From the IMG/VR virus record IMGVR_UViG_3300025944_000008: a stretch of 64,000 nucleotides of DNA; one strand, given 5' to 3'. The notes under the pieces are model-generated. The model ran no database searches. It was given only the letters and a program-made list of their open reading frames with translations, and was not told where the DNA came from. Origin of the DNA: a virus. Its lineage: Duplodnaviria; Heunggongvirae; Uroviricota; Caudoviricetes. A program made the position numbers and the translations under genes. This document shows, in pieces, positions 8,354 through 56,938 of this stretch. Position 1 is the first letter of the stretch; each line of letters begins with the position of its first letter.

Positions 8354-8462
8354 GACAAGTACAGGATAGATACCAGCTAGACGAATAGCAAGTGGAAAGA
8401 TTGTTAGTCATGAGATAAGGTACTACCGGTCAGCTAATTTGTCTCTAACTGGGGAGAATGAA
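8354..8462. promoter_or_regulatory. AT-rich divergent intergenic region (probable promoters)
   Basis: ~110 bp AT-rich spacer between minus-strand gene start (8353) and plus-strand ligase start (8463). Confidence 0.35.
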
Positions 8463-9932
8463 ATGAATAACTCGAGTTGGGCATCTCTATCGTTCGACGA
8501 GCGGCAGCGCCAGTGGGACGGGCGTATCCGGCAATTCCGCCAGCACAACGGTCGAGGAGATCGCCCAAACGTCTGGGAGATTTGGGTCGAAGAAGATCGC
8601 GTCTACACGCGACACGGCCTGCTCGATGGGGCGATGCAAGAGACCAACTACCAGGGCAAGCTCAAGAACAAGGGCAAGAAGAACGAGATCTCGACCGTCC
8701 AGGATGCGATCGCAGAAGCTCGGCGAGACGTTCGCAAGAAGTGGGACTTCGAGGGCTATGACGAATACGATGCCGGTTACAACATCGATCGGCGGAATGA
8801 AGACAAGAGCGTCAACCACCTGCTAACCAACCTGCCGGGCTCCTTTTGCCTCTACAAGCCCGAGAATGAGCTTGAAGACCACAAGCGTCTACTCGAGCTC
8901 ACCAATGCAGGAAAAGCACTGCATACGCTCAAGCGCGACGGCGTCGCGATGTGGGTCATCAAGGACTTCTACGGCAACATTCGGTTCTACTCTCGTCGGT
9001 CTCGTCCGTGGAGTGACACCGAAGAGCCGCTGGAGTTGCCCGACGGCACTCTCGACTACTCGACGGCGAAGCCGTGGACCCTGCGGTTCCCCCATCTCTA
9101 TGCCGACGTCGAGAAGTTGCAGTTGCCGAACGGCACCATGATGGCAGTCGAGCTGGTCGCCGTGAACCCCGTCACAGGGAGAGACGACCTTCGCATCTCG
9201 TCGGGGTACACCAAAGGGCTGACCGAACGATCGCTACAAGACCAGATCTCGAACCCGCCTGTCTTCTACTGGTGGGACGTTCCGTTCTATGCCGGGCAAG
9301 ACTTGGTTCGCACCGTCCGCGTAGCCGATCGCTACAACATCATCCTCCAGCACTGCGCCTCATCGGTGCCCCAGTACATCCAGCAGATTCAGATCTGCAA
9401 CTTCCCCAATGCGGAGAAGGCCCTCGAGCACGCCAAGGAGCTGGGCATCGAGGGTTGGGTGGTCGTCGACCCTGACGCGATCTACGGCGACAAGGGATGG
9501 AGCCTGAAGGGCAAGCCCGACCGCCCCTCGAGCTGCGCCAAGTCCAAGCCGACGGCCGAGGACGACTTCATCGCGTACTGGGACCCGGACAAGAAGAACA
9601 TGGGTGAGTGGGGTACAGGCAAGCACGAGCGAGACAAGGAAGTGATGCTGCCGAGCGGTGCCGTGGTCGAGCACGGTGGCGTCGGCTCGGTGGCTCTGTA
9701 CCAGTACAACCCCAAGGGAGAGCTGGTCTATATCTCCAAGTGCTCGTCAGGCATGGCATACGAGTTCCAAGCACAGCTCAGGAAGGAGCACTTCCCCTTC
9801 GTCTGCAAATGCGAGTTCAAAGGCAGGACGTACATCTCCGACGGAGAGAAGACGAACGCTCTTCGGCATCCAGTGTTCGTGGAGGCGAGAGATGACAAGC
9901 GTGCTGATGAGTGTGTGAACGAGAAGCTGTAG
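8463..9932 (+). CDS. ATP-dependent polynucleotide ligase (nucleotidyltransferase superfamily)
   Basis: Motif I KRDG (TLKRDGVAM), motif IV-like IEGWVVVD, motif V-like LKGK; RBS ggggag before ATG 8463 (ORF track starts at upstream TTG 8439). Confidence 0.6.
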   Translation: MNNSSWASLSFDERQRQWDGRIRQFRQHNGRGDRPNVWEIWVEEDRVYTRHGLLDGAMQETNYQGKLKNKGKKNEISTVQDAIAEARRDVRKKWDFEGYDEYDAGYNIDRRNEDKSVNHLLTNLPGSFCLYKPENELEDHKRLLELTNAGKALHTLKRDGVAMWVIKDFYGNIRFYSRRSRPWSDTEEPLELPDGTLDYSTAKPWTLRFPHLYADVEKLQLPNGTMMAVELVAVNPVTGRDDLRISSGYTKGLTERSLQDQISNPPVFYWWDVPFYAGQDLVRTVRVADRYNIILQHCASSVPQYIQQIQICNFPNAEKALEHAKELGIEGWVVVDPDAIYGDKGWSLKGKPDRPSSCAKSKPTAEDDFIAYWDPDKKNMGEWGTGKHERDKEVMLPSGAVVEHGGVGSVALYQYNPKGELVYISKCSSGMAYEFQAQLRKEHFPFVCKCEFKGRTYISDGEKTNALRHPVFVEARDDKRADECVNEKL

Positions 9933-15443: not shown

Positions 15444-15818
15444 CTATGCTGCCGATTCGCGCTCCTCGACGAACTCTCCGACCTGAACGGTCTCGTCGAT
15501 GATAGCGAGGATGTCGCTCGACTTGATCATGAAGACCCGGAGCCCATCGTCGTCCGCGAACTCGTGGAAGGCGTCCTTCAAGAAGCCACGGAAGGCGAAG
15601 CGCATCCCAGGCTCGAGAGGGAAGCCGACGACCTCACCGGCCCGCTTCCCGACCTTCAGAATGCGAGCCGCGACCGGCATGACGCGCTCAATGGAGACGA
15701 TCTGGTCCGGCAGATGAATGCCACCGGCTGTCTTCGTGACGCGCTTCTCCGTCCTGGCGATGATCCAATCACCGATCGGGTCGCACTGCTGCCAGGTCCT
15801 GTTCGTTGGCAGGTGCAT
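15444..15818 (-). CDS. GroES-like co-chaperonin
   Basis: TKTAGGIHLPD and C-terminal SDILAIID match GroES/gp31 mobile-loop and C-terminal signatures. Confidence 0.6.
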   Translation of the reverse strand: MHLPTNRTWQQCDPIGDWIIARTEKRVTKTAGGIHLPDQIVSIERVMPVAARILKVGKRAGEVVGFPLEPGMRFAFRGFLKDAFHEFADDDGLRVFMIKSSDILAIIDETVQVGEFVEERESAA

Positions 15819-16084
15819 CAGGTCTGCTCCACACCACCGTTGTTGCGCTTGGCCAGGCGATCGAAGAACACCTTCTTCAGCCACTCGGCCGGCTTACGCG
15901 ACTTGACCTCGATGATGCGGAGCTCGTTGCCGATCACCGCCATGAGGTAGTCCTCTTCGCCGGTGCTGGTCTCCACCTGCGCCAAGAACATCTTGACTTC
16001 AGCGAAGCCGACTTTTCGGTTTGATTCGGCTCCCGACGTCCCCGTCTGCAGCGGAATTTCCAGAACCTTCTCGTTCGTCGCCAT
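15818..16084 (-). CDS. hypothetical protein
   Basis: ATG 16084 with aggagg RBS. Confidence 0.45.
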   Translation of the reverse strand: MATNEKVLEIPLQTGTSGAESNRKVGFAEVKMFLAQVETSTGEEDYLMAVIGNELRIIEVKSRKPAEWLKKVFFDRLAKRNNGGVEQT

Positions 16085-19639: not shown

Positions 19640-20001
<362 letters not shown>

Positions 20002-22400: not shown

Positions 22401-22847
22401 ATGAAGACCATGGCTCTACTGCTCGGAATCGCACTTGCCTCGATCAGCCTTCCCGGTTGCGCCTGCTGGACGGACCAAGCAAAGGCCAACGACCCAGGCT
22501 GCATCATCGCGCACGACATCGTCGATTGCACGACCAGCACCATCAAGGATGCGCTGCCCTTCTTCGCTCAGATCGTGCTGGGCCTGATCAGCGGTGGCAC
22601 CAACCCGAACAACATTCCCTGGGACAGCATCGAAGCCCAGGCGGAAGGCATGGGTATCAAGGACGGAGGCTGCTTCCTCGCAGAGCTGAAGAACCTGCTC
22701 TTCGGCAGTCCGACCGCAACTCCAGAGCTGATGGCCAGCCGCAAGGCGATGAACGACGTGCTCGACAGCTACAAGCAGAAGCACTTCGGCAGCCTGACGG
22801 TGAAGTTCAAGATCAAGACCAAGGACGGTAAGGAAGTGATGCTGTGA
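22401..22847 (+). CDS. lipoprotein (o-spanin-like?)
   Basis: MKTMALLLGIALASISLPGC lipobox. Confidence 0.5.
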   Translation: MKTMALLLGIALASISLPGCACWTDQAKANDPGCIIAHDIVDCTTSTIKDALPFFAQIVLGLISGGTNPNNIPWDSIEAQAEGMGIKDGGCFLAELKNLLFGSPTATPELMASRKAMNDVLDSYKQKHFGSLTVKFKIKTKDGKEVML

Positions 22848-23644
22848 GCCGTTTCGCTACCGTCGCCGGCGTCGTCCGGCACATGAAGGGATGGAAGCCC
22901 GACACTCCAGACCCGAGGGATCGCCGGCTGACGGTCAGCGAAGAGCTCGCTCTACCGGATACCGTCGACCTTAGTGATCGATGCCCTCCGGTGATGGACC
23001 AGGGCCAGATCGGCTCCTGCACAGCAAACTCGAGTTCATCCGCGCTCGCCTTCTTGGAACACAAGGGGCAGCAGGCGACGCTGTACTCTCGCCTGTTCAT
23101 CTACGCGATGACGCGGATGCTCGAGGGTACTCCGCTCTACGAAGACAGTGGAGCGCAAATCCGCGACGTCATGAAGGCGCTCTCCACCTATGGCGTGCCG
23201 CAGGAGCTCACGTGGCCCTACGACACGTCGAAGTTCTCGGTGATCCCACCACCGCAAGCGAAGGCGGAGGCGCTCAACCACAAGGCAATTCTCTACTTCC
23301 GCTGCCCGAACCTCTACACCCTGAAGGCCTCCCTCTTCCAGGGCTTCCCCGTCGTCATCGGCTTCTCGGTGCCGGACAACATGATGAGCGACGAGTGTGC
23401 CCGGACAGGCGTCGTCAAGCCGCCAGCGCCTGGAGAGGCGTTCGACGGCGGGCATGCCGTCCTGGCAGTCGGCTACAACGACAACATGGTCTGCGGGGCC
23501 GAGCGAGGCGCTGTGCTGTGCCAGAACTCGTGGGGAACCGGATGGGGTGAGGGAGGCTTCTTCTGGCTGCCCTATTCGTTCTGGATGGGCGGCGAGGGCG
23601 CGTTGGTGTCCGACTGCTGGACCATTCGCCGGGCGGAGGTCTGA
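22844..23644 (+). CDS. papain-like (C1 family) cysteine peptidase
   Basis: DQGQIGSCTANS (Gln-Cys), GGHAVLAVGY (His), NSWGTGWGEGGFFW (Asn) catalytic motifs; GTG start overlapping upstream stop. Confidence 0.7.
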   Translation: MSRFATVAGVVRHMKGWKPDTPDPRDRRLTVSEELALPDTVDLSDRCPPVMDQGQIGSCTANSSSSALAFLEHKGQQATLYSRLFIYAMTRMLEGTPLYEDSGAQIRDVMKALSTYGVPQELTWPYDTSKFSVIPPPQAKAEALNHKAILYFRCPNLYTLKASLFQGFPVVIGFSVPDNMMSDECARTGVVKPPAPGEAFDGGHAVLAVGYNDNMVCGAERGAVLCQNSWGTGWGEGGFFWLPYSFWMGGEGALVSDCWTIRRAEV

Positions 23645-23645
23645 G

Positions 23646-24038
23646 ATGCGCTTCTCCCTGATTCTTGTCTTGCTCGCCGGCTGCGGAGGCTGTCATCCAC
23701 TTCCTCCTCCGACACCGCCGCAGCCGGTGCAGCAGGACATGGCTCAATCGCCGGCAGACATGAAGCCGAACATCTACGGCTTGCCCAACTGCCCAGCAAA
23801 CCTCTCGGTGACCTACGCCGACGTCTGCGACGGCATGTTCACCAAGGTCGGGCTCTCCTGCGCAATCTGCCACGGAGGCGCTGCCTGCTATGACGAGTCG
23901 GACGGCATCTACTGCGCCAGCGGGAGCGCAGGGTGCTTGGACGACCACGCTTGCGTTCATGTGCAAGACGGCGAGGACGGCAGTCCTGGGGCGCAGGCTA
24001 AGAAGGCGAAGAGGCAAAAGAAGAGGGCATCACAATGA
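23646..24038 (+). CDS. Cys-rich lipoprotein
   Basis: MRFSLILVLLAGC lipobox. Confidence 0.5.
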   Translation: MRFSLILVLLAGCGGCHPLPPPTPPQPVQQDMAQSPADMKPNIYGLPNCPANLSVTYADVCDGMFTKVGLSCAICHGGAACYDESDGIYCASGSAGCLDDHACVHVQDGEDGSPGAQAKKAKRQKKRASQ

Positions 24039-24763
24039 TCCTCAAGCTCGTCGAGATGCCGTCCACGATCAAGGGGCCGAACGACGCCGACTACAAAGGC
24101 CAGGTTCCCCGTCGCATGCGCTTTCTGGCCCCTGACGTTGGACCAGCACTGCTGCGTCTCGACAAGGATACGGGCGGCTACATCTACACGGACGTGTGGC
24201 GGTCCGCCGACTCATCGCTTGCGGCCCGTCGCGTGAAGCGCGGAGTACAGCGTCCTGGCTACAGCCCGCACGGATACGGTCTCGCTGTTGATCTCGATCT
24301 CTATGCCATCATGAAGGCATTCAAGATCCACTATGGCGACATCGTCGAGGTGATGAAGGCCCACGGCTGGTACTGCCATCGTCGCGATGGATTGGGACCG
24401 GACGAGTCGGAGGCGTGGCACTTCAACTACCTTGGCGACGACGCAGAGAAGTATCTGTCGAAGGTCGACGTCAACAACCATGCGACGTGGTCCAACGCGG
24501 TCGAGATGCGTATCCTCGAGCGCTACGGCCAGGACTTCTCGATGTCGCCAGTCCAGATTCAAAGCTATCTGGCGCAGCTCAAGATGTACGGCGGGGAGAT
24601 CGACGGCAACGTCAGCACGCAGCTCTTCCGCGAAGCCGTCATGGTCTTCCAGCGCGCCTGGGATCTGGATGTCGACGGAGATGCCGGTATCATGACGCAG
24701 CGCACTCTCGCCTTCGTCACGGCTACGCAGCAAATCACTCCACTCGCTCCGCTCGTCGCGTAA
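24035..24763 (+). CDS. endolysin: M15 (VanY/L-Ala-D-Glu) peptidase + PG_binding_1 domain
   Basis: SPHGYGLAVDLD and EAWHFNY zinc-site motifs; C-terminal GEIDGNVSTQLFREAVMVFQRAWDLDVDGDAGIMTQRTL. Confidence 0.75.
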   Translation: MILKLVEMPSTIKGPNDADYKGQVPRRMRFLAPDVGPALLRLDKDTGGYIYTDVWRSADSSLAARRVKRGVQRPGYSPHGYGLAVDLDLYAIMKAFKIHYGDIVEVMKAHGWYCHRRDGLGPDESEAWHFNYLGDDAEKYLSKVDVNNHATWSNAVEMRILERYGQDFSMSPVQIQSYLAQLKMYGGEIDGNVSTQLFREAVMVFQRAWDLDVDGDAGIMTQRTLAFVTATQQITPLAPLVA

Positions 24764-25248: not shown

Positions 25249-26322
25249 ATGGCGGTGAGCTTGTATGACGTTCTTGGCATGAAGAAGACGGCGACGGCTG
25301 AGCAAATCAAGAGCGCGTACCGGGCTCTCGCCAAGCGCTACCACCCGGACACCAACCCCGGGAACACCTTCGCCGAAGAGAAGTTCAAAGAGTTGGCCGC
25401 CGCCTACGCCGTCCTCGGTGATCCGCAAAAGAGAGCCAAGTACGACAGCGGCGCGGTTGGTGGTCCCATCACTCTCCAGACTCGCATGGGCCGCTTCGTC
25501 ATCAACGGCAACGCATTCACTGGAGAGGTGGCTGATATCTACGAGGCCATCAAGGAAGATACGGGAGAAGTCTTCGCTTTGAAGGTCGCGCGATCACCAC
25601 GAGACAATGACCTCCTCGAGAACGAGGCGAAAGTCCTGAAGGAGATCTATCCTTCAGACGTCTCAAGCCACAAGTACCATCTCTACCTGCCGAAGTTGAT
25701 CGGGAGCTTGAAGATCGACGACGGCTCTCGCCGACAGGCGAACCTCATGCAGTGGCTGAACGGCTACTACTCTCTCGAGAAGGTTCGCGCCGCTCATCCG
25801 AGGCTGCAGATGGAGCACGGGGTTTGGATGTTCAATCGCATGCTGGAGTTTCTCGGTTACCTGCACAACAAGCAGAATCGAGTGCATGGAGCGGTGATTC
25901 CTCCACATGCTCTCGTCTACGCGGGAACCCAAGAAAAAGACATCCTCAACCATGGCGCTCGGCTGGTGGGGTGGTCATATTCCGTGCAGGTGGGTGGAAC
26001 GATCAAAGCCATCAGCCCGGAGTATGAGGCGTTCTACCCGCCCGAAATCTTCGCCAAGCGCCCGGTCTCGCCCGCCACCGACATCTACATGGCTGCCAAG
26101 AGTATCATCCACGTACTCGGCGGCGATGTCCGTCCCGGGGCTGACGTCTACCCCGGCCATATCCCGAACTACTTTCTGAACTTCCTGAGAAGCTGCACCA
26201 TCAAGTCACCGGCATCTCGCCCGCAAGACGCCTGGGCTCTCCACCGAGAGCTCAAGGACCACATGCGGGTTCATTACGGTCCCAAGAAGTACGTCCCGTT
26301 TCACATGCCCTCACCGGCCTAA
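25249..26322 (+). CDS. J-domain (DnaJ) protein fused to protein-kinase-like domain
   Basis: [18 protein letters not shown] motif; downstream ALK / [10 protein letters not shown] / HGAVIPPH resemble kinase VAIK, aC-Glu and a degenerate catalytic loop. Confidence 0.6.
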
Positions 26323-26334: not shown

Positions 26335-27357
26335 ATGGGTGGATCACGTTGGAGCGACGAGGACTACAATCTCAGCGTCGGCAGCAAGCTCGATTCGCAC
26401 GGCACCGCCTTCACCTACGACGCCGACGTCAAGGCTGCCAAGGTGGCCGCGGCGGTGGCGCCGAAGCTCGACCCCAAGAGCATGAAGTCCAATCCTCTGG
26501 ACCCGAGTGGCATCAAGGTGCGCGAGAGCCGCGACAGCGACGCGCATCCAAATTCGAAGGGCGTCATCGTCGGCTTGGACGTCACCGGCTCGATGGGCGA
26601 GCAGTCTCACATCGTCCACGGCCGCCTCTCGGCCCTGATGGGGCTCCTGACCCGTAAGGGCTACCTCGAGGACCCGCAGATCTTGTACGCCGCCGTCGGC
26701 GACGCCTTCTCGGATAGGGCCCCGCTTCAGCTCGGGCAGTTCGAGTCGGGCGTTGAGATGGAGGACGACCTCTCGAAGTTCTGGATCGAAGGTGGCGGCG
26801 GTGGCACGGCGCAGGAGAGCTATGATCTCCTGATGTACTTCGCCGCTCGCCACACCGCGATGGACTGCTTCGAGAAGCGCGGGCAGAAGGGCTACCTCTT
26901 CATCATCGGGGACGAGTCGCCGTATCCGTCGATCAAGAAGACCGTGGTCAAGCAGTTCCTCGACATCGACATCGAAGCCGACATCCCGACCGAGATCATC
27001 GCCGAGGAGCTGAAGCAGAAGTTCGAGTGCTTCTTCGTCCTGCCGACGCACGCCAGCAACGCCCGCGATCACCGCGTCGTCGAGAACTGGGGCCGCCTGT
27101 TCGGCAAGGAGCACATTCTCAAGATCGACGACTCGAGCGGCACACCCGAGCTGATCGCTACTCAGATCGGCCTCTGCGAAGGCACCACGGACGTCGACGC
27201 CGCTGTGACGGACATGAAGGACGTGGGCACCTCGGACTCGACGGCCATGGTCGTCGCCAACTCGGTCAGCAAGGCCTACGCCGGCGGCAAGATCGCGAAG
27301 GTCCCGGCCGGCACCCTCACCCCGAGCTCCGCCTCCAGCGGGGCCAAGCGTCTCTGA
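26335..27357 (+). CDS. von Willebrand factor A (vWA) domain protein
   Basis: MIDAS-like DVTGSM (DxSxS). Confidence 0.55.
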   Translation: MGGSRWSDEDYNLSVGSKLDSHGTAFTYDADVKAAKVAAAVAPKLDPKSMKSNPLDPSGIKVRESRDSDAHPNSKGVIVGLDVTGSMGEQSHIVHGRLSALMGLLTRKGYLEDPQILYAAVGDAFSDRAPLQLGQFESGVEMEDDLSKFWIEGGGGGTAQESYDLLMYFAARHTAMDCFEKRGQKGYLFIIGDESPYPSIKKTVVKQFLDIDIEADIPTEIIAEELKQKFECFFVLPTHASNARDHRVVENWGRLFGKEHILKIDDSSGTPELIATQIGLCEGTTDVDAAVTDMKDVGTSDSTAMVVANSVSKAYAGGKIAKVPAGTLTPSSASSGAKRL

Positions 27358-27392
27358 TGAACCTGCAAAGGAGAGGCTCGGGGCCCGGCGGT

Positions 27393-27503
27393 ATGCTGGA
27401 AAAGATGTTCTTCAGCGTCTGGGCTCTCGGGATGATCATCGGTATCGCAATCGGCGGCGGACTCGTCTGGGCCGCCATTCACTTCATCCGCAAGTTCTGG
27501 TAG
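27393..27503 (+). CDS. small membrane protein
   Basis: 36 aa single TM (FSVWALGMIIGIAIGGGLVWAAIHF). Confidence 0.3.
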   Translation: MLEKMFFSVWALGMIIGIAIGGGLVWAAIHFIRKFW

Positions 27504-27552: not shown

Positions 27553-28920
27553 ATGAGCAAAGCCATTCTGGTTGCCGGATTGGGGTTCGGCGACGAGGGT
27601 AAGGGAACCATCACGCAATACCTCGCCAGGGAGACCAAGGCCGACTGGGTCATTCGCTACAACGGGGGCGCTCAGGCGGCGCACAATGTCTATGCTCAGG
27701 ACGGCCGACATCACACGTTCTCGCAGTTTGGTAGTGCGACGTTCGAAGGAGTCCCCACCTTCATGTCTCGTCACACTATCATCGAGCCGTCTGCCTTCTT
27801 GAGCGAGTTCTTGCAACTCGAGCGGCTCGGCATCGAAAATGCGAATGTCCTCGTGGCATTCGATCGCAACGCTCTCGTCGTCACGCCTTTCCATAAAGCC
27901 GCGAACCAGCTTCGCGAGATTCTTCGTGGCGACTGGCGCCACGGGAGCTGTGGAATGGGGATCGGCGAGACCAAGCAGGACTCGCTCTCTTCACACAACG
28001 ATACGATCGCCGTCGGTGATCTTTCAGATAGAACAACGCTTCTCCGCAAATTCAAGTCCGTACAGGACAGGAAGTATGAAGAGTTCAAGACACAAGTCCT
28101 GGACGTGTCCCTTCCAGACATCGCCCATCGCGCTCTTCGCTGGTTCACCTTCCCAGCCGATCGGGTGGAGCACATGGTGGACCAGCTCCACGATCTTGCG
28201 GGCCTCTTCAGAACTGTCGATGCCGATAGCCTGCCGTGCATGTTCCGAGGAAAGAATCTAGTCTTCGAAGGCGCACAGGGAGCGCTACTCGACCAAGACT
28301 ACGGCTTCCAGCCCTACACTGCTTGGACGGATGCAACCTTCACTGGAGCTCGTCAGATACTCGACGCAGCCGGGTATGACGGCGACATCTGGAAGGTCGG
28401 AGTCATGCGTTCATACATGACGCGCCATGGAGCCGGCCCGCTACCGACGCAAGATGAGATCTTCGGCATCGAGGACGGCAAAATCAAGGAGCTCGTCTTC
28501 GACAAGCACAATGGGATGGGATTGTGGCAGCGAGAGTTCCGTATTGGAACGCCGGACGTCTTATTGACGCGCTACGCTCTCGAGGTCCTCGGCGGCGTCG
28601 ATGAGATCGCCATGACTCACATCGACCAACGCGATCATTTCATGTGGCTCTGCACTGGGTACTCTGTCTACGAAGAGGAAGACGAGGTCATGTTCCAATT
28701 CGGCAGCCCAGCTCATCGAGCGCTCGACATTCACGTCGAGAAGCATCCGACCTATGCCGGGCAGGAGTACCTAGCAAAGGCACTGTCCAGGGTCGTTCCG
28801 ATCTATGAGCGCGCCCCGAAAGACACCGACGCCTTCCTGCACATCATGAAGCAACACCTAAATACGCCGATCGGCATCATCTCGACAGGACCTGGGCCGG
28901 ACAAGAAGTTCAGAACCTAG
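27553..28920 (+). CDS. adenylosuccinate synthetase family (PurA/PurZ-like)
   Basis: GDEGKG P-loop, GGAQAAHN, FEGAQGALLD, ISTGPGPD motifs. Confidence 0.75.
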   Translation: MSKAILVAGLGFGDEGKGTITQYLARETKADWVIRYNGGAQAAHNVYAQDGRHHTFSQFGSATFEGVPTFMSRHTIIEPSAFLSEFLQLERLGIENANVLVAFDRNALVVTPFHKAANQLREILRGDWRHGSCGMGIGETKQDSLSSHNDTIAVGDLSDRTTLLRKFKSVQDRKYEEFKTQVLDVSLPDIAHRALRWFTFPADRVEHMVDQLHDLAGLFRTVDADSLPCMFRGKNLVFEGAQGALLDQDYGFQPYTAWTDATFTGARQILDAAGYDGDIWKVGVMRSYMTRHGAGPLPTQDEIFGIEDGKIKELVFDKHNGMGLWQREFRIGTPDVLLTRYALEVLGGVDEIAMTHIDQRDHFMWLCTGYSVYEEEDEVMFQFGSPAHRALDIHVEKHPTYAGQEYLAKALSRVVPIYERAPKDTDAFLHIMKQHLNTPIGIISTGPGPDKKFRT

Positions 28921-47709: not shown

Positions 47710-47783
47710 ACTCCCGATCGGATTCGAACCGATACTGCCCGCGTTTTGAATGCGGTGCCTCTACCAGTTGGGCTACGGGAGCA
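47710..47783 (-). tRNA. tRNA (type I; loop UUCAAAA, anticodon CAA?; A31-C39 mismatch)
   Basis: T-arm ATCGGTTCGAATCCGAT. Confidence 0.4.
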
Positions 47784-47788
47784 TGAGT

Positions 47789-47863
47789 GCCGACGAGGAG
47801 ATTCGAACTCCTACTGTTCCGCTTCTAAGGCGGACGTCTCTACCAGTTGGACTACGTCGGCAT
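47789..47863 (-). tRNA. tRNA (type I; anticodon TAG)
   Basis: AC stem TCCGC/GCGGA loop CTTAGAA. Confidence 0.45.
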
Positions 47864-47950
47864 GGTGCTCGGGATGAGACTCGAACTCACACGGACTTTC
47901 GCCCACCGGCTTCTGAGACCGGCGCGTTTACCAGTTACGCCACCCGAGCA
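47864..47950 (-). tRNA. tRNA-Leu(CAG), CCA encoded
   Basis: Type II; stem CCGGT/GCCGG (G-U) loop CTCAGAA. Confidence 0.6.
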
Positions 47951-47957
47951 GATTTGT

Positions 47958-48041
47958 GCGAACGGGGAGACTCGAACTCCCACGGCCTTTCGGCCACCAG
48001 CACCTCAAGCTGGCGCGTCTACCAGTTCCGCCACGCTCGCA
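47958..48041 (-). tRNA. tRNA-Leu(GAG)
   Basis: Type II; stem CCAGC/GCTGG loop TTGAGGT. Confidence 0.6.
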
Positions 48042-48043
48042 TT

Positions 48044-48119
48044 GGTACAGCGCCAGGGACTCGAACCCTGCTCATCCTCCGTGTGAGAGAGGCATCACCA
48101 CCTGGTGAACTGCGCTGCG
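48044..48119 (-). tRNA. tRNA-Val(CAC), CCA encoded
   Basis: loop CTCACAC. Confidence 0.55.
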
Positions 48120-48123
48120 CAGT

Positions 48124-48190
48124 CGCTCGCATCGGAATCGAACCGATCTCCAAGGCGTATGAAGCCTCGTTCCTCCCAGAGGTCGAGCGG
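48124..48190 (-). tRNA. tRNA-Met/Ile2(CAT), compact (reduced D-arm)
   Basis: loop TTCATAC; 67 nt. Confidence 0.45.
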
Positions 48191-48191
48191 T

Positions 48192-48263
48192 AGCGGGCCC
48201 ACGAGTTGAACGTGGAATCTCTAGGTTATGAGCCTAGTGAGTTGCCCTTTCTCCAGCCCGCAG
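48192..48263 (-). tRNA. tRNA-Met(CAT)
   Basis: AC stem CTAGG/CCTAG loop CTCATAA. Confidence 0.55.
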
Positions 48264-48264
48264 T

Positions 48265-48338
48265 GTCCCTGGCCGGATTCGAACCGGCACTCTTCCGCTT
48301 AGGAGGCGGCTGCATGATCCAATCATGCTGCAGGGACG
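48265..48338 (-). tRNA. tRNA-Arg(CCT)
   Basis: loop CTCCTAA. Confidence 0.55.
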
Positions 48339-48344
48339 TGTTGT

Positions 48345-48416
48345 GCTCTCGGCAGGAATCGAACCTGCAACTCAGCCTTCGGAGGGCTGCATGATGTCCG
48401 TTTCACCACGAGAGCA
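48345..48416 (-). tRNA. tRNA-Arg(CCG)
   Basis: stem CAGCC/GGCTG loop CTCCGAA. Confidence 0.6.
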
Positions 48417-48542
48417 GAACTCGAGAAACACGTCATAGTAGAAGTGCCGTCTTGCGTAGATCACCAGGCGGTACATCCCTCTTTTGACGTACCTGACGTC
48501 TTGCCTGTGAATCCATGGAATCTTGAAAGGCTCTTCCATCAG

Positions 48543-48614
48543 CGTCCTCGCCAGGATTCGAACCTGGAATACAACGTTCGTAGCGTCGCGTGATATCCGT
48601 TTCACTACGAGGAC
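48543..48614 (-). tRNA. tRNA-Arg(ACG)
   Basis: loop CTACGAA. Confidence 0.6.
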
Positions 48615-48849
48615 AAGACATCTTGAGATCCGTAGCCGCGGTTTTGTTCTATGCCATCATTCGTCTAAGCAGCAACCCGGAGACTCGCCGGACAGGGTCA
48701 ACATCTCCTGTTTGCCTTAGTGCAGGCCGAGTTGTGGTTCAGCGGATTTCTCCTCCCACAGAGCTCGGACACTCGTCCTGAGCACCCGCGAACTTCCTCA
48801 GCGAGACGATTCCTTCCGCTCGCCGCGATGGCTCGAAATCAAGATGCGG

Positions 48850-48920
48850 AGCCCCGGGAGGGAATCGAACCCTCTTTTCATCCTTACCAAGGATGCGTCC
48901 TGCCATTGAACGACAGGGGC
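48850..48920 (-). tRNA. tRNA-Thr(GGT)
   Basis: stem CATCC/GGATG loop TTGGTAA. Confidence 0.6.
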
Positions 48921-49046
48921 CTATCAGTGTGCGCAGGCGGGCTATACTCCCGCGTCTCCGGCGTGGTGCAATCGACTTTCGTCTCCCACTCCCAGGTGCT
49001 TTCGCCCTCACTGGCTGGTGTCGTGGTTCAGACTTCTGCGCGTCGA

Positions 49047-49121
49047 TGGTGGAGCCGATGGGAATCGAACCCACCGCGGTCTGCTTGCAAAACAGTCCTG
49101 GTCACCAGACTTCTCGACCCC
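49047..49121 (-). tRNA. tRNA-Ala(TGC), CCA encoded
   Basis: G3-U70 in acceptor GGGGTCG/CGGCTCC; loop TTTGCAA. Confidence 0.5.
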
Positions 49122-49122
49122 A

Positions 49123-49395
49123 TTATGCTGCTTCACTCTCTGGCAAGATCGGATCACAGCCCCGTCGCCGGTTGCAGCCCTGATGGGCCAGGCGGAGGTT
49201 GTCGATGTGGTCCGTGCCTCCCCCCGACCTCGGGATGATGTGGTCGAAGGTGATGTACATCTCGCTGAAGACGTCCTTGATGCGGCGATCGAGGGCCTCC
49301 TTGCAGATCATGCAGGTCATCCCGTCCCGCGCCATCAGCTTTGTCACTCGCTGCCAGCGCCACTTGTGATGAAAGAGCCGCCGCGCTTTCGCCAT
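49123..49395 (-). CDS. HNH endonuclease (short)
   Basis: FDHIIPRSGGGTDHIDNLRLAHQGCNRRRG. Confidence 0.6.
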   Translation of the reverse strand: MAKARRLFHHKWRWQRVTKLMARDGMTCMICKEALDRRIKDVFSEMYITFDHIIPRSGGGTDHIDNLRLAHQGCNRRRGCDPILPESEAA

Positions 49396-49414
49396 GAGTG
49401 GATCCTACCATGAG

Positions 49415-49487
49415 TGGAGACGAAGGGGATCGAACCCTCGACCTCATCGTTGCGAACGATGCGCTCTCCCAACTGAGCTACGTCCCC
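49415..49487 (-). tRNA. tRNA-Ala(CGC)
   Basis: G3-U70; D-arm TAGCTCAGTTGGGAGAGCG; loop TTCGCAA. Confidence 0.65.
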
Positions 49488-49488
49488 A

Positions 49489-49563
49489 TGGTGCGGAAGG
49501 AGGGTATCGATCCCTCTACCTCTGGCGTGTCGAGCCAGCGCTCTACCAGTGAGCTACTCCCGC
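49489..49563 (-). tRNA. tRNA-Val(GAC), CCA encoded
   Basis: stem CTGGC/GCCAG loop TCGACAC. Confidence 0.65.
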
Positions 49564-49575
49564 GTGCTTCTTCAG

Positions 49576-49648
<73 letters not shown>

Positions 49649-49651
49649 GTA

Positions 49652-49690
49652 CTAGCTAAAGAAACGGGGCGAACCCCGTTTCGTGCTACC
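49652..49690 (-). terminator. terminator (minus strand) with TCTTTAGCTA motif
   Basis: On minus strand aacggggttcgccccgtt hairpin + tctttagctagtac. Confidence 0.55.
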
Positions 49691-49695
49691 CCTGC

Positions 49696-50664
49696 TTACG
49701 ACTTCCGAATGCTGCCGTTGACGCCCGCGTCCTTGAGCGTCGTCTGCAGCGTGGTGAGCGCCTCGCGGCTCGAGGTCGACTCGAGGGCCTTCGTGGCGAT
49801 CTCCGCGTTCTTCTGGTTGGCTTCCTTCAGCGCGATCTGCAGCTCTTCGTTCAGCTTCGTCAGCCGAGCGTTCTGCTCCGTAAGAGCCTTCTTGTCCGCC
49901 TCGTAGAGCGCCTTCTCGCTCGCCCGATCCTTCTCGAGGAGCTCCTTGGCGTGGTTGTGATCCCGAGTCAGGCGGTTGCTCTCGATTGCCACTGCCTGCT
50001 TGACCGCCTTCTCGATCTCGCCCAGGTGACCGGCGACCGCGGCCCGAAGATCGATCAGCTCCTTCTCACGGAGCTTCAGCTCGTCTTCCCGCTGCGCCCA
50101 GATCTTCTGGAGCTGGTCCTGGCGAGCGAGCTCTTGGATGTTGCGCACCCGGACCTGCTCGTTCCACGCATCCAGATCCGCCTTGCGGGTCTGCTTGGTC
50201 GTGTACTCGTAATCGGCCTGTTCGCGCTCGCGCTCCTTCTTCGTCGCGTTCCAGTCCTCGGCGTTCTTCGTGCGGGCTTCGAGGATCTCCTTCTCGAGCG
50301 CCGCCTTCTGCTCGTCGTGCTCGGCCTTCAGCACATCGAGGTGCTCGAGGATGACTCGGGCGCCGTAGAGCTTGGTGAGTTCCTTGGCCTCGAGGTCGAT
50401 GTTCGTCTTGACGTCCTGGAGGAGCGAGAGCTTGTTGGCCAGCTCCTCGTTGATCGTCGAAAGGGACTTCTGGGTTGCCAGGCTCGCCGCGGTGACGGCC
50501 TGCGCCGCCTTGCTCACTTCCAGCTCGGCGATCGAAGAGCGGGTCGCCTCGGCCGCCCGCGCCTGCAGCTCGATCTCCTTCTCCGACATCCCCGGCGGAA
50601 CGTTGAGGTTGGAGAAGGCGATCTTGGTCTCGATACGATTGCGCGAACGCTTCTTGTCGCTCAT
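49696..50664 (-). CDS. long coiled-coil protein
   Basis: 322 aa from ATG 50664 (aaggagag RBS); continuous heptad-like E/K/A/L composition. Confidence 0.55.
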   Translation of the reverse strand: MSDKKRSRNRIETKIAFSNLNVPPGMSEKEIELQARAAEATRSSIAELEVSKAAQAVTAASLATQKSLSTINEELANKLSLLQDVKTNIDLEAKELTKLYGARVILEHLDVLKAEHDEQKAALEKEILEARTKNAEDWNATKKEREREQADYEYTTKQTRKADLDAWNEQVRVRNIQELARQDQLQKIWAQREDELKLREKELIDLRAAVAGHLGEIEKAVKQAVAIESNRLTRDHNHAKELLEKDRASEKALYEADKKALTEQNARLTKLNEELQIALKEANQKNAEIATKALESTSSREALTTLQTTLKDAGVNGSIRKS

Positions 50665-50739
50665 GGTCTCTCTCCTTGGAAACGCTAAAGGGCAAAATTG
50701 CCCGCGCTTCCTTATCTCTGCGAGAGAGAACTTTTGCGA

Positions 50740-50815
50740 TGGTGCTCCAGGTCGGGATCGAACCGACGCCTCCGCTTTTTCAGAGCGGCGCACAGACCCT
50801 CTATGCTACCGGAGC
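50740..50815 (-). tRNA. tRNA-Phe(GAA), CCA encoded
   Basis: stem CCGCT/AGCGG loop CTGAAAA. Confidence 0.65.
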
Positions 50816-50891
50816 GTTGGCACCTCTGCCGGGTCGCTAGGCCGGATCGCCTCGGTAACGGCCGAGGAGCTCTGCATTTGAGCTACGGAGA

Positions 50892-50967
50892 TGGCGCCTG
50901 CGACGAGGATCGAACTCGCCGAATCTCCCGTGACAGGGGAGCGTCCACACCAGTGGACCTCGCAGGC
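50892..50967 (-). tRNA. tRNA-Asp(GTC), CCA encoded
   Basis: stem CTCCC/GGGAG loop CTGTCAC. Confidence 0.65.
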
Positions 50968-51034
50968 ATCGGACGATGAGGTGAGCGCTCACCTCTCTCT
51001 GCGCGGAGCGACAGATAGCCTTCGTCCTTGCTAT

Positions 51035-51111
51035 TGGGGTGAACGACGGGAGTCGAACCCGCTAGCACCTGATCCACAATCAGGCGGCTCCTCCATTTTG
51101 CCTTCGTCCAC
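51035..51111 (-). tRNA. tRNA-His(GTG), CCA encoded
   Basis: loop TTGTGGA; discriminator C73. Confidence 0.65.
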
Positions 51112-51116
51112 CATAC

Positions 51117-51193
51117 TGGTCCGTTGGGACGGGATTCGAACCCGCACCTTCTGATCCACACTCAGACGTGCTGCCATTGAACACTACCCACGG
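51117..51193 (-). tRNA. tRNA-His(GTG)-like second copy, CCA encoded
   Basis: stem TCTGA/TCAGA loop GTGTGGA; acceptor one mismatch. Confidence 0.4.
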
Positions 51194-51195
51194 GG

Positions 51196-51267
51196 TGCGC
51201 CCTGAAGGATTCGAACCCTCATATCTCGCTAATCAGGCGAGTGTCCTAACCGTTGGACGAAAGGCGC
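51196..51267 (-). tRNA. tRNA-Ile(GAT)
   Basis: stem CTCGC/GCGAG loop CTGATTA. Confidence 0.65.
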
Positions 51268-51280
51268 ATGGCAAATCTAG

Positions 51281-51352
51281 TCGGAGTGGGGAGGATCGAA
51301 CTCCCGATCTCTCGGTCCCGAACCGAGCGCGATACCGCTTCGCTACACTCCG
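51281..51352 (-). tRNA. tRNA-Pro(CGG)
   Basis: stem CTCGG/CCGAG loop TTCGGGA. Confidence 0.65.
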
Positions 51353-51484
51353 ATTGTGGCAACCGTCTTCAGGTAGCGAACCTGAAGAGTTCTTCCCCGC
51401 CCCGGCTGTCGCAGGTCGGCATGTAAGGCTGTGCCCTCTTCGTCCGGTCACACTGCACCGGCACTGCGTCGAGGCTACGTAGAG

Positions 51485-51556
51485 TCGGGATGGCCAGGAT
51501 CGAACTGGCGACCTCTCGCACCCCAAGCGAGCGCGCTACCGCTGCGCTACATCCCG
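51485..51556 (-). tRNA. tRNA-Pro(GGG)
   Basis: loop TTGGGGT. Confidence 0.65.
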
Positions 51557-51565
51557 TGATTCTAC

Positions 51566-51640
51566 TGGTCAAGGTGAGAGGACTCGAACCTCCAGCCACT
51601 CGGTCCCAAACCGAGAGCTCTACCATTGAGCTACACCTTG
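51566..51640 (-). tRNA. tRNA-Pro(TGG), CCA encoded
   Basis: loop TTTGGGA. Confidence 0.65.
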
Positions 51641-51709
51641 ATACTCGCACCGGATCAAAACCGTTCCTCTCGACACCAGGCCGAGCGTGCATCACACACT
51701 GCTATTGAG

Positions 51710-51785
51710 TGGTCTCCCGCACGGGAGTTGAACCCGTATTGTCCGCGTGAAAGGCGGTTCTCCTTGCCAGTTAGAGGAGCGGGAG
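51710..51785 (-). tRNA. tRNA-Glu(TTC), CCA encoded
   Basis: loop CTTTCAC. Confidence 0.6.
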
Positions 51786-51860
51786 ATTGTCACGCTTCAA
51801 TGGGGCTTCAACCCATTCCTCGGGCTTTGGAGGCCCGTATGCGCCAACACCGTATTTGCG
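51786..51860 (-). tRNA. tRNA-Trp(CCA)-like (acceptor stem unclear)
   Basis: AC stem CGGGC/GCCCG loop CTCCAAA; T-arm ATGGGTTGAAGCCCCAT; 5'/3' ends do not pair cleanly. Confidence 0.35.
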
Positions 51861-51936
51861 TGGTGACCCCACCGGGATTCGAACCCGGACACCTGCCTTG
51901 AGAGGGCAGTCACCTAACCGTTAGTGGATGGGGCCG
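51861..51936 (-). tRNA. tRNA-Glu(CTC), CCA encoded
   Basis: stem CTGCC/GGCAG loop CTCTCAA. Confidence 0.65.
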
Positions 51937-51939
51937 TAA

Positions 51940-52010
51940 TGGAGGTCCGCTGCGGAGTCGAACCGCACTCACGAGGTTTGCAATCTCGTTCGCTCCCAGA
52001 ACTGCGGACC
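51940..52010 (-). tRNA. tRNA-Cys(GCA), CCA encoded
   Basis: loop TTGCAAA with A31-C39 mismatch. Confidence 0.55.
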
Positions 52011-52015
52011 ACTTG

Positions 52016-52087
52016 CTCCAGAGACAGGATTCGAACCTGTGACCTTCCGGTTAACAGCCGGCTGCTCTTCCGCTGAGCTACACTGGA
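52016..52087 (-). tRNA. tRNA-Asn(GTT)
   Basis: loop CTGTTAA; D-arm TAGCTCAGCGGAAGAGC. Confidence 0.55.
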
Positions 52088-52303
52088 ATGATCATGACGA
52101 AGACCAAAGCCGAAACTTCTCTGCCTCTCGACTACGAGGTCACCTCCGCTCGTCCTACGTGGGTAACCATCACTCTTCCAGACGGTAGTCAGTACCAAGC
52201 AAGCATTGTCACATCTGTGGTGGGCGTGAAGACCAAGCCCGGATCTGGTGACGTTTCCTTCGATTTCGAAATCAACTGGCAAGCACGCTGGGAGAAAGTC
52301 TAG
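52088..52303 (+). CDS. small hypothetical protein inside tRNA array
   Basis: 71-aa protein-like ORF; weak RBS. Confidence 0.35.
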   Translation: MIMTKTKAETSLPLDYEVTSARPTWVTITLPDGSQYQASIVTSVVGVKTKPGSGDVSFDFEINWQARWEKV

Positions 52304-52375
52304 AGCCGACGGTCGGAATCGAACCGACAACCTTCGCTTTACAAGGGCGCTGCACTTCCGTTGTGCTACGTCGGC
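52304..52375 (-). tRNA. tRNA-Thr(TGT)? (weak anticodon stem)
   Basis: loop CTTGTAA; good acceptor/T-arm. Confidence 0.45.
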
Positions 52376-52462
52376 AGAGTCACCCTAGTCCTCTCCGCAC
52401 CCGGAGTCCTTTGCCTCGTCAGGCGGTGCTCCATGGAGACCAGAGGAGACGACATCGGGCGG

Positions 52463-52532
52463 TTCCGGGTGAGGGACTCGAACCCCCACATACGGTGTCA
52501 GAGACCGCTGTCCTACCATTAGACGAACCCGG
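52463..52532 (-). tRNA. tRNA-Gln(CTG)
   Basis: stem GCGGT/ACCGT loop CTCTGAC. Confidence 0.6.
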
Positions 52533-52542
52533 AGTAGAAACG

Positions 52543-52615
52543 TTGGATCGGGCTCTGGGTGTCGATCCCAGCAAGCAGGATTTCAAAGACCCCGCCCCTC
52601 GCCGGAGGCGCCCGA
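52543..52615 (-). tRNA. tRNA-Gln(TTG), CCA encoded
   Basis: loop CTTTGAA; T-arm CTGGGATCGACACCCAG. Confidence 0.5.
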
Positions 52616-52773
52616 ACAAAAGACCGAGTGCTCTACCAATTGAGCTAGTGGGTTGAGAGAGCTCGCGAGACTTCTCAAGGAGACCAGAGGCCCGCACCGT
52701 CGACGGCCATCGACGGAGACCAAGGGGCCGCACCTTCCCACCCAGGACTCGAACCTGGATCACCCGGTTTTAG

Positions 52774-52844
52774 AGCGCGTGGCGGGGATTGAACCCGCGC
52801 AGCCAGTTTGGAAGACTGGAATGCTACCGCTACATCACACGCGC
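52774..52844 (-). tRNA. tRNA-Gly(TCC)
   Basis: stem CCAGT/ACTGG loop CTTCCAA. Confidence 0.65.
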
Positions 52845-52848
52845 ATTG

Positions 52849-52920
52849 TGCTCCCGTAGGGTGTCGAACCCTCGCCAACGGATTAAAAGTCCGCTGCTCT
52901 ACCGCCCGAGCTCCGGGAGC
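52849..52920 (-). tRNA. tRNA-Lys(TTT)
   Basis: loop CTTTTAA. Confidence 0.6.
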
Positions 52921-52973
52921 TGACTATGCTGCTGTCGGCTCGGGCTTGATTTTCGTTCCATGCTTCACCTCAG

Positions 52974-53045
52974 TGGGTGCCGTGGGAGTCGAACCCACAA
53001 CCAACGGATTAAGAGTCCGCTGCACTTCCATTGTGCTAGGCACCC
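52974..53045 (-). tRNA. tRNA-Lys(CTT)
   Basis: loop CTCTTAA. Confidence 0.65.
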
Positions 53046-53142
53046 AAAGCCCCGACTGTGTCGCGACGGCACATGCCGGAGCCAGTTTCTTCGCTGTCGA
53101 CTATTCGGTTTTCAAAGTCGCGGCGAGAGCTACTCGCCTCGG

Positions 53143-53226
53143 TGCCGGAGCCCGGACTCGAACCGGGTTGTTCCTGGGGACGACTGTTTTACAGACAGCC
53201 TCGGTGACCTTACCGTCAACCCCGGC
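53143..53226 (-). tRNA. tRNA-Tyr(GTA)
   Basis: Type II; stem GCTGT/ACAGT loop CTGTAAA. Confidence 0.6.
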
Positions 53227-53307
53227 AAACGTGCCGGCTCACTCGCCGGCAGCACTTCTTACTACGCTACTGCATCACCTTCATCGGAGCACTCTCCTGA
53301 ATTCCCC

Positions 53308-53383
53308 TGGTGCGGATGACCGGATTCGAACCGGCTACCTCATGCTTGGCAAGCACGCGTGCAACCAAGTACACCTCATCCGC
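53308..53383 (-). tRNA. tRNA-Gly(GCC), CCA encoded
   Basis: loop TTGCCAA. Confidence 0.6.
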
Positions 53384-53389
53384 GTTCAG

Positions 53390-53460
53390 AGCCCCCGGCG
53401 AGAATCGAACTCGCATTCCTGGTTTACGAAACCAGTGTCCTGCCGTTGAACGACAGGGGC
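53390..53460 (-). tRNA. tRNA-Thr(CGT)
   Basis: stem CTGGT/ACCAG loop TTCGTAA. Confidence 0.6.
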
Positions 53461-56729: not shown

Positions 56730-56938
56730 TGAAGCTACTGGCCGCAAAAAAGACGACGGCAGAACTGACTCTCGACGAGCTTCGGCGCGAGCGTCAGTTC
56801 TTGAAAGAATGGACGTTCATCCTGCGCTATGGCTCGATACGTAACCTCACCGAGCACGAGCAGCAATTGCTGGACCGGTTCAAAGAGCTCACTGAGGAGC
56901 TGATAAAGCGGAGGGACAATGGCGCGCAAGTGGGGTGA
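56726..56938 (+). CDS. hypothetical protein
   Basis: 70 aa, ATGA overlap. Confidence 0.4.
   Translation: MMKLLAAKKTTAELTLDELRRERQFLKEWTFILRYGSIRNLTEHEQQLLDRFKELTEELIKRRDNGAQVG

Follow-up and report, generated by a model that had tools for sequence, protein, structure and literature searches.

A phage PurA-superfamily protein, very probably neither PurA nor PurZ, is encoded in a conserved module with a vWA protein and a predicted pseudokinase

The locus and the PurA-superfamily protein P

We analyzed a 64,000-nucleotide stretch of DNA from a virus of the class Caudoviricetes (IMG/VR record IMGVR_UViG_3300025944_000008; hereafter, the window), in which an ATG-start open reading frame (ORF) at positions 27553–28920 (+ strand) encodes a 455-aa protein that we call P. 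Two genes lie directly upstream on the same strand. The first (25249–26322) encodes K, in which a J-domain with an HPD motif is fused to a protein-kinase fold that is predicted to be a pseudokinase, and the second (26335–27357) encodes V, a 340-aa protein with a vWA fold. An initial annotation, made from the sequence alone, had proposed that P is a PurA-family enzyme in a phage, either adenylosuccinate synthetase (AdSS, PurA) or PurZ of the 2-aminoadenine (Z) genome pathway. We report here that P very probably represents a third branch of the PurA family, neither PurA nor PurZ, and is part of a K-V-P module.

P was confirmed as a real, full-length PurA-superfamily protein. The Pfam family PF00709 (Adenylsucc_synt) spans residues 7–450 (E = 1.6e-60; 205 bits versus a 27-bit cutoff), P matches PHROG 1211 (E = 2e-66), and the PurA motifs that had been noticed by eye were recovered by alignment, namely the GDEGKG P-loop, FEGAQG, TRHG, T-H-I-D and STGP. 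The surroundings are phage-like, with rIIA and rIIB homologs, 43 tRNA genes and a tmRNA gene, and gene-for-gene synteny between the window and a large viral-type contig of 119 kb (L006). The full-length match, the motifs and these surroundings uphold the assignment to a PurA-family enzyme in a phage. A protein identical to P was found on 13 metagenome contigs, some of 0.2–1 Mb, and a megablast search with 20 kb of the window against deposited phages gave no match at the DNA level. At its end, P overlaps by 4 nt with a convergent gene (28917–30350, – strand) for a 477-aa protein with LigD 3'-phosphoesterase and ligase OB domains.

An AlphaFold2 model of P obtained with 37 homologs (pLDDT 89, pTM 0.90) resembled the long form of AdSS from bacteria and eukaryotes, with TM scores of 0.77–0.82 to 1CG1, 4M9D and 1IWE, versus 0.57 to the short archaeal form and PurZ and 0.53 to PurZ0 (0.53–0.57 over the structures 7ODX, 6FKO and 7VF6). 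The sole low-confidence stretch, at residues ~301–325, is the counterpart of the aspartate loop. We predict that P is a GTP-dependent ligase of the PurA superfamily, and we refer to its clade as 'Bxz1 gp250-type' after its member in Mycobacterium phage Bxz1.

Comparison with PurZ

Asp13 (E. coli numbering) is conserved in 99% of PurA, and Ser takes its place in 147 of 147 phage PurZ/PurZ0 sequences (PMC12884076). The Ser14-to-Asp mutation of PurZ abolishes substrate selectivity (bioRxiv 10.1101/2025.10.22.683976). P keeps the Asp rather than Ser at this position, as D14 within GDEGKG. On the NCBIfam PurZ model NF038379 (amino_Aden_PurZ), P scored 45.8 bits versus a cutoff of 300 bits, and solved PurZ structures were barely detectable from P by sequence search. 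Identity was about 20% to PurZ/PurZ0, 26–28% to canonical PurA and 40–50% within the clade of P itself.

We computed a bootstrapped neighbor-joining (NJ) tree of 28 sequences with a small reference set of four canonical PurA and four PurZ/PurZ0. A split with 100% bootstrap support separated all of these references from P and its relatives: Bxz1 gp250, the homologs of Rhizobium phage TM40 and Vibrio phage KT1024, and 16 metagenomic or cellular homologs. The initial annotation had left a choice between PurA and PurZ, and had named firm clustering with cellular PurA as an outcome that would speak against PurZ. P does cluster with cellular proteins, but these form a separate, accessory clade outside the PurA and PurZ references, and P scores below the cutoffs of the models for both families, so that the choice itself is not borne out.

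Partners of PurZ were also sought. A tblastn search of the window with DatZ from a phiVC8-like phage returned only noise (best E = 0.7), and no HD or MazG domain was detected in about 40 window ORFs scanned against Pfam, which agrees with the earlier remark that DatZ (HD) and MazZ were not seen; no DpoZ-type partner was found within the 64-kb window either. Two ORFs mentioned in the same remark, the 'MPP' at 34256 and the 'NUDIX' at 56919, correspond to a phrog_547 phosphoesterase and to a NUDIX-box ORF at 56907–57548, respectively.

If P were PurZ or PurZ0, it would convert dGMP and aspartate to dSMP and would mark a Z genome. This view is favored by the presence of a PurA homolog in a phage and by the PHROG family label '2-aminooxy adenylosuccinate synthetase', which has been propagated to Bxz1-type genes in RefSeq phage records. 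PurZ/PurZ0 (6FM1, 7ODX, 7VF6) are, like P, phage-borne PurA paralogs with a changed substrate specificity, which for P we infer. However, PurZ is of the short, archaeal type, with Ser for Asp13 and a changed base pocket for the nucleoside triphosphate, whereas P is of the long form and keeps Asp13. PurZ and PurZ0 retain N38, T129, R143, T301 and R305 in our alignment, and P shows the reverse, including the loss of the aspartate ligands. PurZ is linked to DatZ, MazZ, DpoZ or DutZ, whereas P is linked to a vWA protein and a pseudokinase, and its clade is common in cellular genomes. The TM scores (0.53–0.57 to PurZ/PurZ0 versus about 0.8 to AdSS) point in the same direction. Because Asp13 is retained, the PurZ model gives 46 bits, identity is ~20% and the split has 100% bootstrap support, P is not PurZ; at the sequence level that identity is refuted, and we find it scarcely conceivable that P marks a Z genome.

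Residue pattern relative to canonical PurA

On the PurA equivalog models of NCBIfam, P scored 166.5 bits versus a cutoff of 402 (NF002223) and 140.6 bits versus 395.6 (TIGR00184). We compared individual residues in a MAFFT L-INS-i alignment with references, using E. coli structural numbering. Residue roles were transferred at 26–28% identity to canonical PurA (~20% to PurZ), and the R143 column is sensitive to gap placement.

The GTP and catalytic positions were preserved. G12, D13, K16, G17, H41, E221, Q224, R272, G274, D333 and S414-x-G-P are kept across P and the clade, with D333 in the context T-H-I-D. In the numbering of P, D13, K16, H41, Q224, D333 and S414 are D14, K17, H44, Q242, D358 and S444, which were invariant in two within-clade alignments, and the positions of the P-loop, H41, K16, Q224 and R272 were conserved in 18/18 clade members. 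In AdSS, D13 is the catalytic base and a P-loop/Mg ligand, H41 is the catalytic acid and D333 confers guanine specificity.

Other positions were replaced. E. coli N38, T129, S240, V273, E296, T301 and R305 correspond in P to Q41, C133, W258, H292, N320, W325 and F329. Across the clade, N38 is replaced by Q (context GGxQAAHN), G40 by A, T42 by N, T129 by C (HGSCG), S240 by W, V273 by H (TRHG), E296 by N, T301 by W, G302 by Q, R305 by F and K331 by H or N. Six switched positions were fixed at the new residue in 18/18 members (Q38, C129, W240, H273, N296 and W301), and F305 was found in 16/18. Among 34 positions that are invariant over the four PurA and four PurZ/PurZ0 references, the clade keeps 16, including the P-loop, H41, Q224, R272 and glycines, and is truly changed at 13. 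As a provisional 'Bxz1 gp250-type' signature we use Q38, C129, W240, H273, N296, W301, Q302 and F305 together with intact D13, H41, Q224 and D333; P has all of them.

We take N38, T129, T239 and R143 to be the ligands of the IMP 5'-phosphate, and T300, T301 and R305 to be those of aspartate, as in E. coli AdSS complexes; PurZ/PurZ0 likewise use aspartate and a nucleoside 5'-monophosphate. At the phosphate sites, P has Q41 for N38, C133 for T129 and A257 for T239, and the clade has no conserved Arg at R143, where P has Ser or Ala depending on gap placement. The aspartate loop, T300-T301-G-R303-x-R305, reads L-W-Q-R-E-F in P, and its clade consensus is x-W-Q-(G/R/Q)-x-F. R303, which binds aspartate and the IMP 2'-OH (PMC8342488, the S-2L PurZ paper), is not conserved in the clade, an Arg being found there only in P and a few other members. 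Judged from this alignment, the GTP and catalytic core is intact, and both substrate pockets appear to have been rebuilt and then frozen by selection.

Because P scores below the equivalog cutoffs and its IMP-phosphate and aspartate ligands are replaced, it is not a canonical PurA. Its likeness to AdSS (EC 6.3.4.4; E. coli 1CG0/1CG1) lies in the Pfam family, the overall fold (TM about 0.8), the P-loop GDxGKG, Asp13, His41, Gln224, the guanine-specificity Asp333 and S-x-G-P, and probably in GTP-driven carbonyl activation. It differs in its 26–28% identity, in the replacement of N38, T129, R143, T301, R305, S240 and V273, and in its genomic partners. One alternative is that P is a divergent but ordinary AdSS, which would raise the AMP supply during infection as the product of an auxiliary metabolic gene, K and V serving only to regulate it. 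The full-length PF00709 match, the long-form fold, the retention of D13, H41, K16, Q224 and the GTP motifs, the Arg of P at position 303 and the RefSeq naming of homologs as adenylosuccinate synthetase are consistent with such an enzyme. However, P lies far under both equivalog cutoffs; T301, R305, N38, T129 and S240, invariant over PurA and PurZ, are changed clade-wide to W, F, Q, C and W; and neither R303 nor R143 is conserved in the clade. Genomic context bears on this alternative as well, as described below.

Distribution of the clade and its named relatives

The clade was found in at least 571 species-representative bacterial genome stretches and 160 IMG/VR stretches, its phyla including Actinomycetota, Chloroflexota, Patescibacteria, Myxococcota, Planctomycetota and Acidobacteriota. 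Bxz1 gp250, a 'PurA-like adenylosuccinate synthetase' of the cluster C myophages, belongs to the clade of P (34–39% identity) and carries the same signature residues. The gene order in Bxz1 is that of the window, with genes for a kinase-like protein (gp247), a vWA protein (gp248), a small ORF and the PurA-like protein (gp250). Bxz1 is nevertheless distant, sharing no DNA-level similarity with the window, and its J-domain is only weakly detectable. The large tRNA set and the tmRNA computed for the window have a counterpart in Bxz1, in keeping with cluster C genome announcements.

In RefSeq records of cluster C mycobacteriophages (e.g. NC_054718.1 and NC_008207.1), the gp250-type gene bears the name that PHROG uses for PurZ, '2-aminooxy adenylosuccinate synthetase'. 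Judged by Asp13 and by the tree, this label is misleading for the gp250-type clade. Plasmids of Rhodococcus and Tsukamurella also carry all three genes; RefSeq describes K and V there as 'hypothetical protein' and P as 'adenylosuccinate synthetase', and the purine-biosynthesis GO term attached to these P homologs is an electronic inference only. Literature searches, including mycobacteriophage, NrtR, vWA and pseudokinase contexts, found no functional study of the PurA-like clade or the triad.

K, V and P form a conserved operon

We examined gene neighbourhoods at the best 80 genome loci and the best 80 viral loci of the clade by profile searches. The genome loci belong to Actinomycetota (31), Chloroflexota (23), Patescibacteria (8), Myxococcota (8) and further groups including Planctomycetota, Acidobacteriota and one gammaproteobacterium; the viral carriers are large phage contigs of 100–500 kb. 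V was present on the same strand within 6 kb of P in 76/80 genome and 78/80 viral loci (154/160), and K in 68/80 and 63/80, respectively (131/160). Wherever present, the three genes share one strand, and the order K>V>P was observed in 111 of the 160 loci. In the reverse search, starting from V, a P-type gene was found in 77/80 viral loci, and one of the three exceptions was cut by a contig end. These results show that K-V-P is a conserved operon across many bacterial phyla and large phage contigs.

Neither a purB-like lyase nor a PP2C phosphatase or FHA partner recurred among the neighbours at these 160 loci. PADLOC returned no defence-system match for V, P or two further window proteins described below, an MVP-like protein and a poly(ADP-ribose) polymerase (PARP); K gave weak generic kinase matches only.

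Association with NAD and ADP-ribose genes

When the other ORFs of the 160 neighbourhoods were clustered, one strong recurrent neighbour emerged, a protein with NUDIX and NrtR winged-helix domains (Pfam, three examples). By profile search this NrtR-like gene was detected in 38/80 genome loci, adjacent and co-directional in 32 of them, and in 11/80 viral loci; we counted by profile since a strict NUDIX-box regular expression undercounts degenerate boxes. The gene directly follows P on the Rhodococcus and Tsukamurella plasmids, and the NUDIX box was degenerate in the one Rhodococcus protein inspected. NamPT (PF04095 and PF18127) adjoins the module in nine viral loci. On one contig (L103) the order is NrtR, V, a NUDIX-fusion protein, NamPT, P and K, with NamPT between V and P, and in a Patescibacteria metagenome-assembled genome it is NrtR-NadA-K-V-P. 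On the IMG/VR contigs L099–L109 (128–512 kb; e.g. L103:1880–8260), NrtR, NamPT and a 327-aa NUDIX-fusion protein stand in one block with V, P and K.

NrtR regulators respond to ADP-ribose and control mostly, but not exclusively, NAD synthesis and salvage (PMC2330246). The same 2008 study lists unexplained NrtR-regulated genes, 'nrtX-nrtY', in Streptomyces, Frankia and Kineococcus, which might overlap with K-V-P. Some jumbo-phage contigs thus place the triad in a same-strand block with NARP2-type genes (NamPT, NUDIX-fusion, NrtR), but K, V and P are not components of NARP1, NARP2 or any other described NARP, and the window lacks NamPT. NARP3 was rejected as a match for the module, as it consists of PnuC and an NadR-like enzyme.

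The genomic context can be read for and against an ordinary AdSS. NAD is built in part from AMP, so that a NamPT/NrtR neighbourhood would suit such an enzyme. However, no purB-like lyase recurs in the 160 neighbourhoods, the clade is patchy and in Rhodococcus plasmid-borne, in genera expected to have a housekeeping purA, and a near-obligate vWA partner is not expected of an ordinary AdSS. Taking these points with the residue pattern, we consider an ordinary AdSS unlikely.

The partner proteins

K has a Pfam DnaJ match (E = 2e-25) and a weak Pkinase match, belongs to phrog_3043 ('kinase') and is related to Bxz1 gp247; a profile of 14 homologs matched PAK and CK2 kinases at about 1e-14. In the window, HRD is changed to H-G-A, KPxN to P-P-H and DFG to G-W-S. 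Across the 14 aligned members, HRD reads H-G-(A/S/Q), the Asn of KPxN is H, N, Y or R, and the Asp of DFG, Gly in the window, is not conserved in the others; the VAIK Lys is retained in 12/14 and the alpha-C Glu is invariant. K is predicted to be a pseudokinase because its catalytic motifs are degenerate across the 14 members, and it may still bind nucleotide because the VAIK Lys and the alpha-C Glu remain. The DnaJ match was strong in K of the window and in a viral-contig homolog (L098; E about 2e-25), the L006 homolog is also annotated with Pfam DnaJ, and a sub-threshold match at the same position was found in 6 of 8 other members scanned. The window further contains a weak match to the GroES-like co-chaperonin Cpn10 (15444–15884, – strand; E = 1.1e-4, just above the Pfam cutoff), which together with the J-domain protein suggests possible phage interference with host chaperones.

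With K itself a degenerate enzyme, P might likewise have lost ligase activity and serve a signalling complex of vWA protein and pseudokinase as a scaffold or as a switch that binds GTP; vWA and kinase pairs are regulatory in other prokaryotes, for example ArnAB, to which a match was found. We regard this as highly improbable, since the catalytic Asp, His, Gln and Lys and the Mg/GTP elements of P are invariant in a clade of only about 40% overall identity, and the replaced pocket residues are invariant too, which argues for selection on a specific ligand pocket rather than decay. The pairing of V and K also recalls vWA and Ser/Thr-kinase modules such as the TerY-P triad and archaeal ArnA/ArnB. 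TerY-P comprises a vWA protein, PP2C and an active Ser/Thr kinase, whereas the module described here has no recurrent PP2C or FHA protein, its kinase fold lacks the catalytic aspartates and bears a J-domain, and its third member is a PurA-like ligase.

V (phrog_2971) has a MIDAS-like motif, D82-x-T84-x-S86, and begins with MGGSRWSDEDY. It gave no Pfam or NCBIfam match, and it is 38% identical to Bxz1 gp248 (E = 3e-68). Its N-terminus follows M-G-(G/S)-(G/S)-x-W-S-(D/T)-D-x-Y in about 90% of 158 distinct sequences across phyla, the sequence upstream of the Met is not conserved, and the N-terminal tail was modelled as a free coil. The Met is usually removed before Gly, and mature V would start with a glycine bearing a free alpha-amine. 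The natural nucleophile of PurA is the alpha-amine of aspartate, which an N-terminal glycine resembles but for having neither carboxylate, and hadacidin, a glycine-derived inhibitor, occupies the aspartate site of AdSS. P might couple a purine to V because glycine lacks the carboxylates whose binding residues are replaced in P.

In this alternative, P would be a protein-directed ligase that joins an activated purine to the N-terminal glycine of V or another peptide amine, yielding a protein-nucleotide conjugate, and K would recruit DnaK or serve as a scaffold. Trp, Gln and Phe stand where the aspartate site otherwise has Arg and Thr to bind the carboxylates, as expected for a nucleophile without free carboxylates, and V and P are mutually near-obligate. 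The proposal is, however, purely inferential; a role of the V N-terminus as a docking peptide or in folding could account for its conservation just as well, and we know of no precedent. We consider it improbable, and equally so its fuller version, in which K-V-P would be a new nucleotide-conjugation system responding to NAD/ADP-ribose stress, with a GTP-activated 6-oxopurine coupled to the V glycine and K recruiting DnaK, used by bacteria and jumbo phages in conflicts over NAD and nucleotide pools.

Downstream of V lies a hydrophobic 48-aa ORF with a membrane-helix-like segment (27357–27503, + strand), whose start overlaps the V stop by 1 nt. It was called independently on two metagenome contigs (L258 and L259), and L006 has a homolog at the corresponding place (48% identity over 33 aa). 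As a general fourth component it was rejected, the median V-to-P gap being 23 bp.

Other genes of the window

Several gene groups occur in the same order in the window and L006: the rIIA and rIIB homologs (36931–40164, +); SpoU methyltransferase, the phrog_547 phosphoesterase and ThyX (33724–35816, +); and a papain-like C1 peptidase with a peptidoglycan-binding protein (22844–24763, +). The 43 tRNA genes lie in arrays at 44117–53460 (–) and 19640–20000 (+) and cover nearly all amino acids; with the tmRNA (tag ANDNVRVQSNLSAPLQAAA) they make the translation gene set unusually complete, a trait shared with cluster C mycobacteriophages.

A 931-aa homolog of MVP is encoded at 30828–33623 (+), with the PF11978 shoulder domain (E = 1.4e-23) and a weak vault-repeat match. 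It is absent from the otherwise syntenic L006 and present on the other metagenome contigs with this locus. The PARP encoded at 40464–41888 (+) resembles those of eukaryotes, having a WGR domain and the regulatory and catalytic PARP domains, and is also found in L006. The PARP, the MVP homolog and the vWA protein recall components of the vault particle.

In addition to the LigD-like gene that overlaps P, the window encodes an ATP-dependent DNA ligase (8439–9932, +), a HAD-domain protein of the 'Swiss army knife' RNA-repair type (61637–62305, –; PF18143, E = 1.6e-31) and a small conserved ORF, phrog_36523 (30387–30824, +), between the LigD-like and MVP genes. The last two are hints of an RNA-repair gene set in this phage.

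Possible function and significance

The analysis shows to which clade P belongs, its pattern of residues, the folds, the linkage of the genes and their distribution; a retained chemistry, altered substrates, a link to NAD and a role in infection are what we infer. Our preferred reading, to which we assign a probability of roughly 0.6, is that P is a GTP-dependent ligase with altered substrates in an undescribed NAD/ADP-ribose-linked module. P would be the enzymatic subunit, using GTP to phosphorylate a lactam or 6-oxopurine-type carbonyl, after which an amine would displace the phosphate. AdSS-type chemistry is likely to be retained because P still has the GTP-binding P-loop, the Asp for guanine specificity, both catalytic residues (Asp and His) and the Gln by which a 6-oxo purine is read. 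The acceptor is probably not plain IMP, or the amine not aspartate, or both, because the pockets for the IMP 5'-phosphate and L-aspartate, the same in PurA and PurZ, are rebuilt; the loss of the 5'-phosphate ligands suggests that the acceptor carries something other than a simple monophosphate at its 5' end.

V and K may regulate P, scaffold it or present its substrate, and the J-domain of K may recruit DnaK. The module may act in the cell's response to disturbance of the NAD or adenylate pool, because an NrtR-like regulator is frequent and NamPT/NUDIX salvage genes stand alongside in some jumbo phages. A phage could use it to sustain nucleotide and NAD metabolism during infection or to counter depletion, and it would make no Z-DNA. 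These specific mechanistic steps for P, K and V are tentative, and we hold them to be rather less probable than the general reading.

Several observations weigh against the preferred reading. P has an Arg at position 303 and Bxz1 may keep R143, so that some canonical binding could survive. The assignment of altered substrates leans on E. coli residue roles taken partly from PMC8342488 and partly from AdSS structures. The tree behind the clade is a simple NJ tree of 28 sequences. The NAD link would follow from genomic association, and for the window phage from homology of the module only, as no NamPT-profile match and no full NrtR were found in the 64-kb window. NrtR-family regulators also control non-NAD pathways (PMC2330246).

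P is a PurA-superfamily enzyme in a previously undescribed three-gene module, K-V-P. The names 'adenylosuccinate synthetase' and '2-aminooxy adenylosuccinate synthetase' (PurZ) seem to be wrong for hundreds of genes in phages and bacteria, among them the gene in roughly 200 Mycobacterium phage records matching P, the best matches being cluster C phages such as Bxz1; carriers of a gp250-type gene should not be scored as Z-genome candidates. The module is widespread and conserved, we found no published function for it, and it offers a clear experimental entry point: Bxz1-type phages and Rhodococcus and Streptomyces strains are genetically tractable, and the chemistry that P seems to retain narrows the substrate search. 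If the NrtR/NamPT link is true, K-V-P would be a new participant where phages and bacteria fight over NAD and nucleotide pools.

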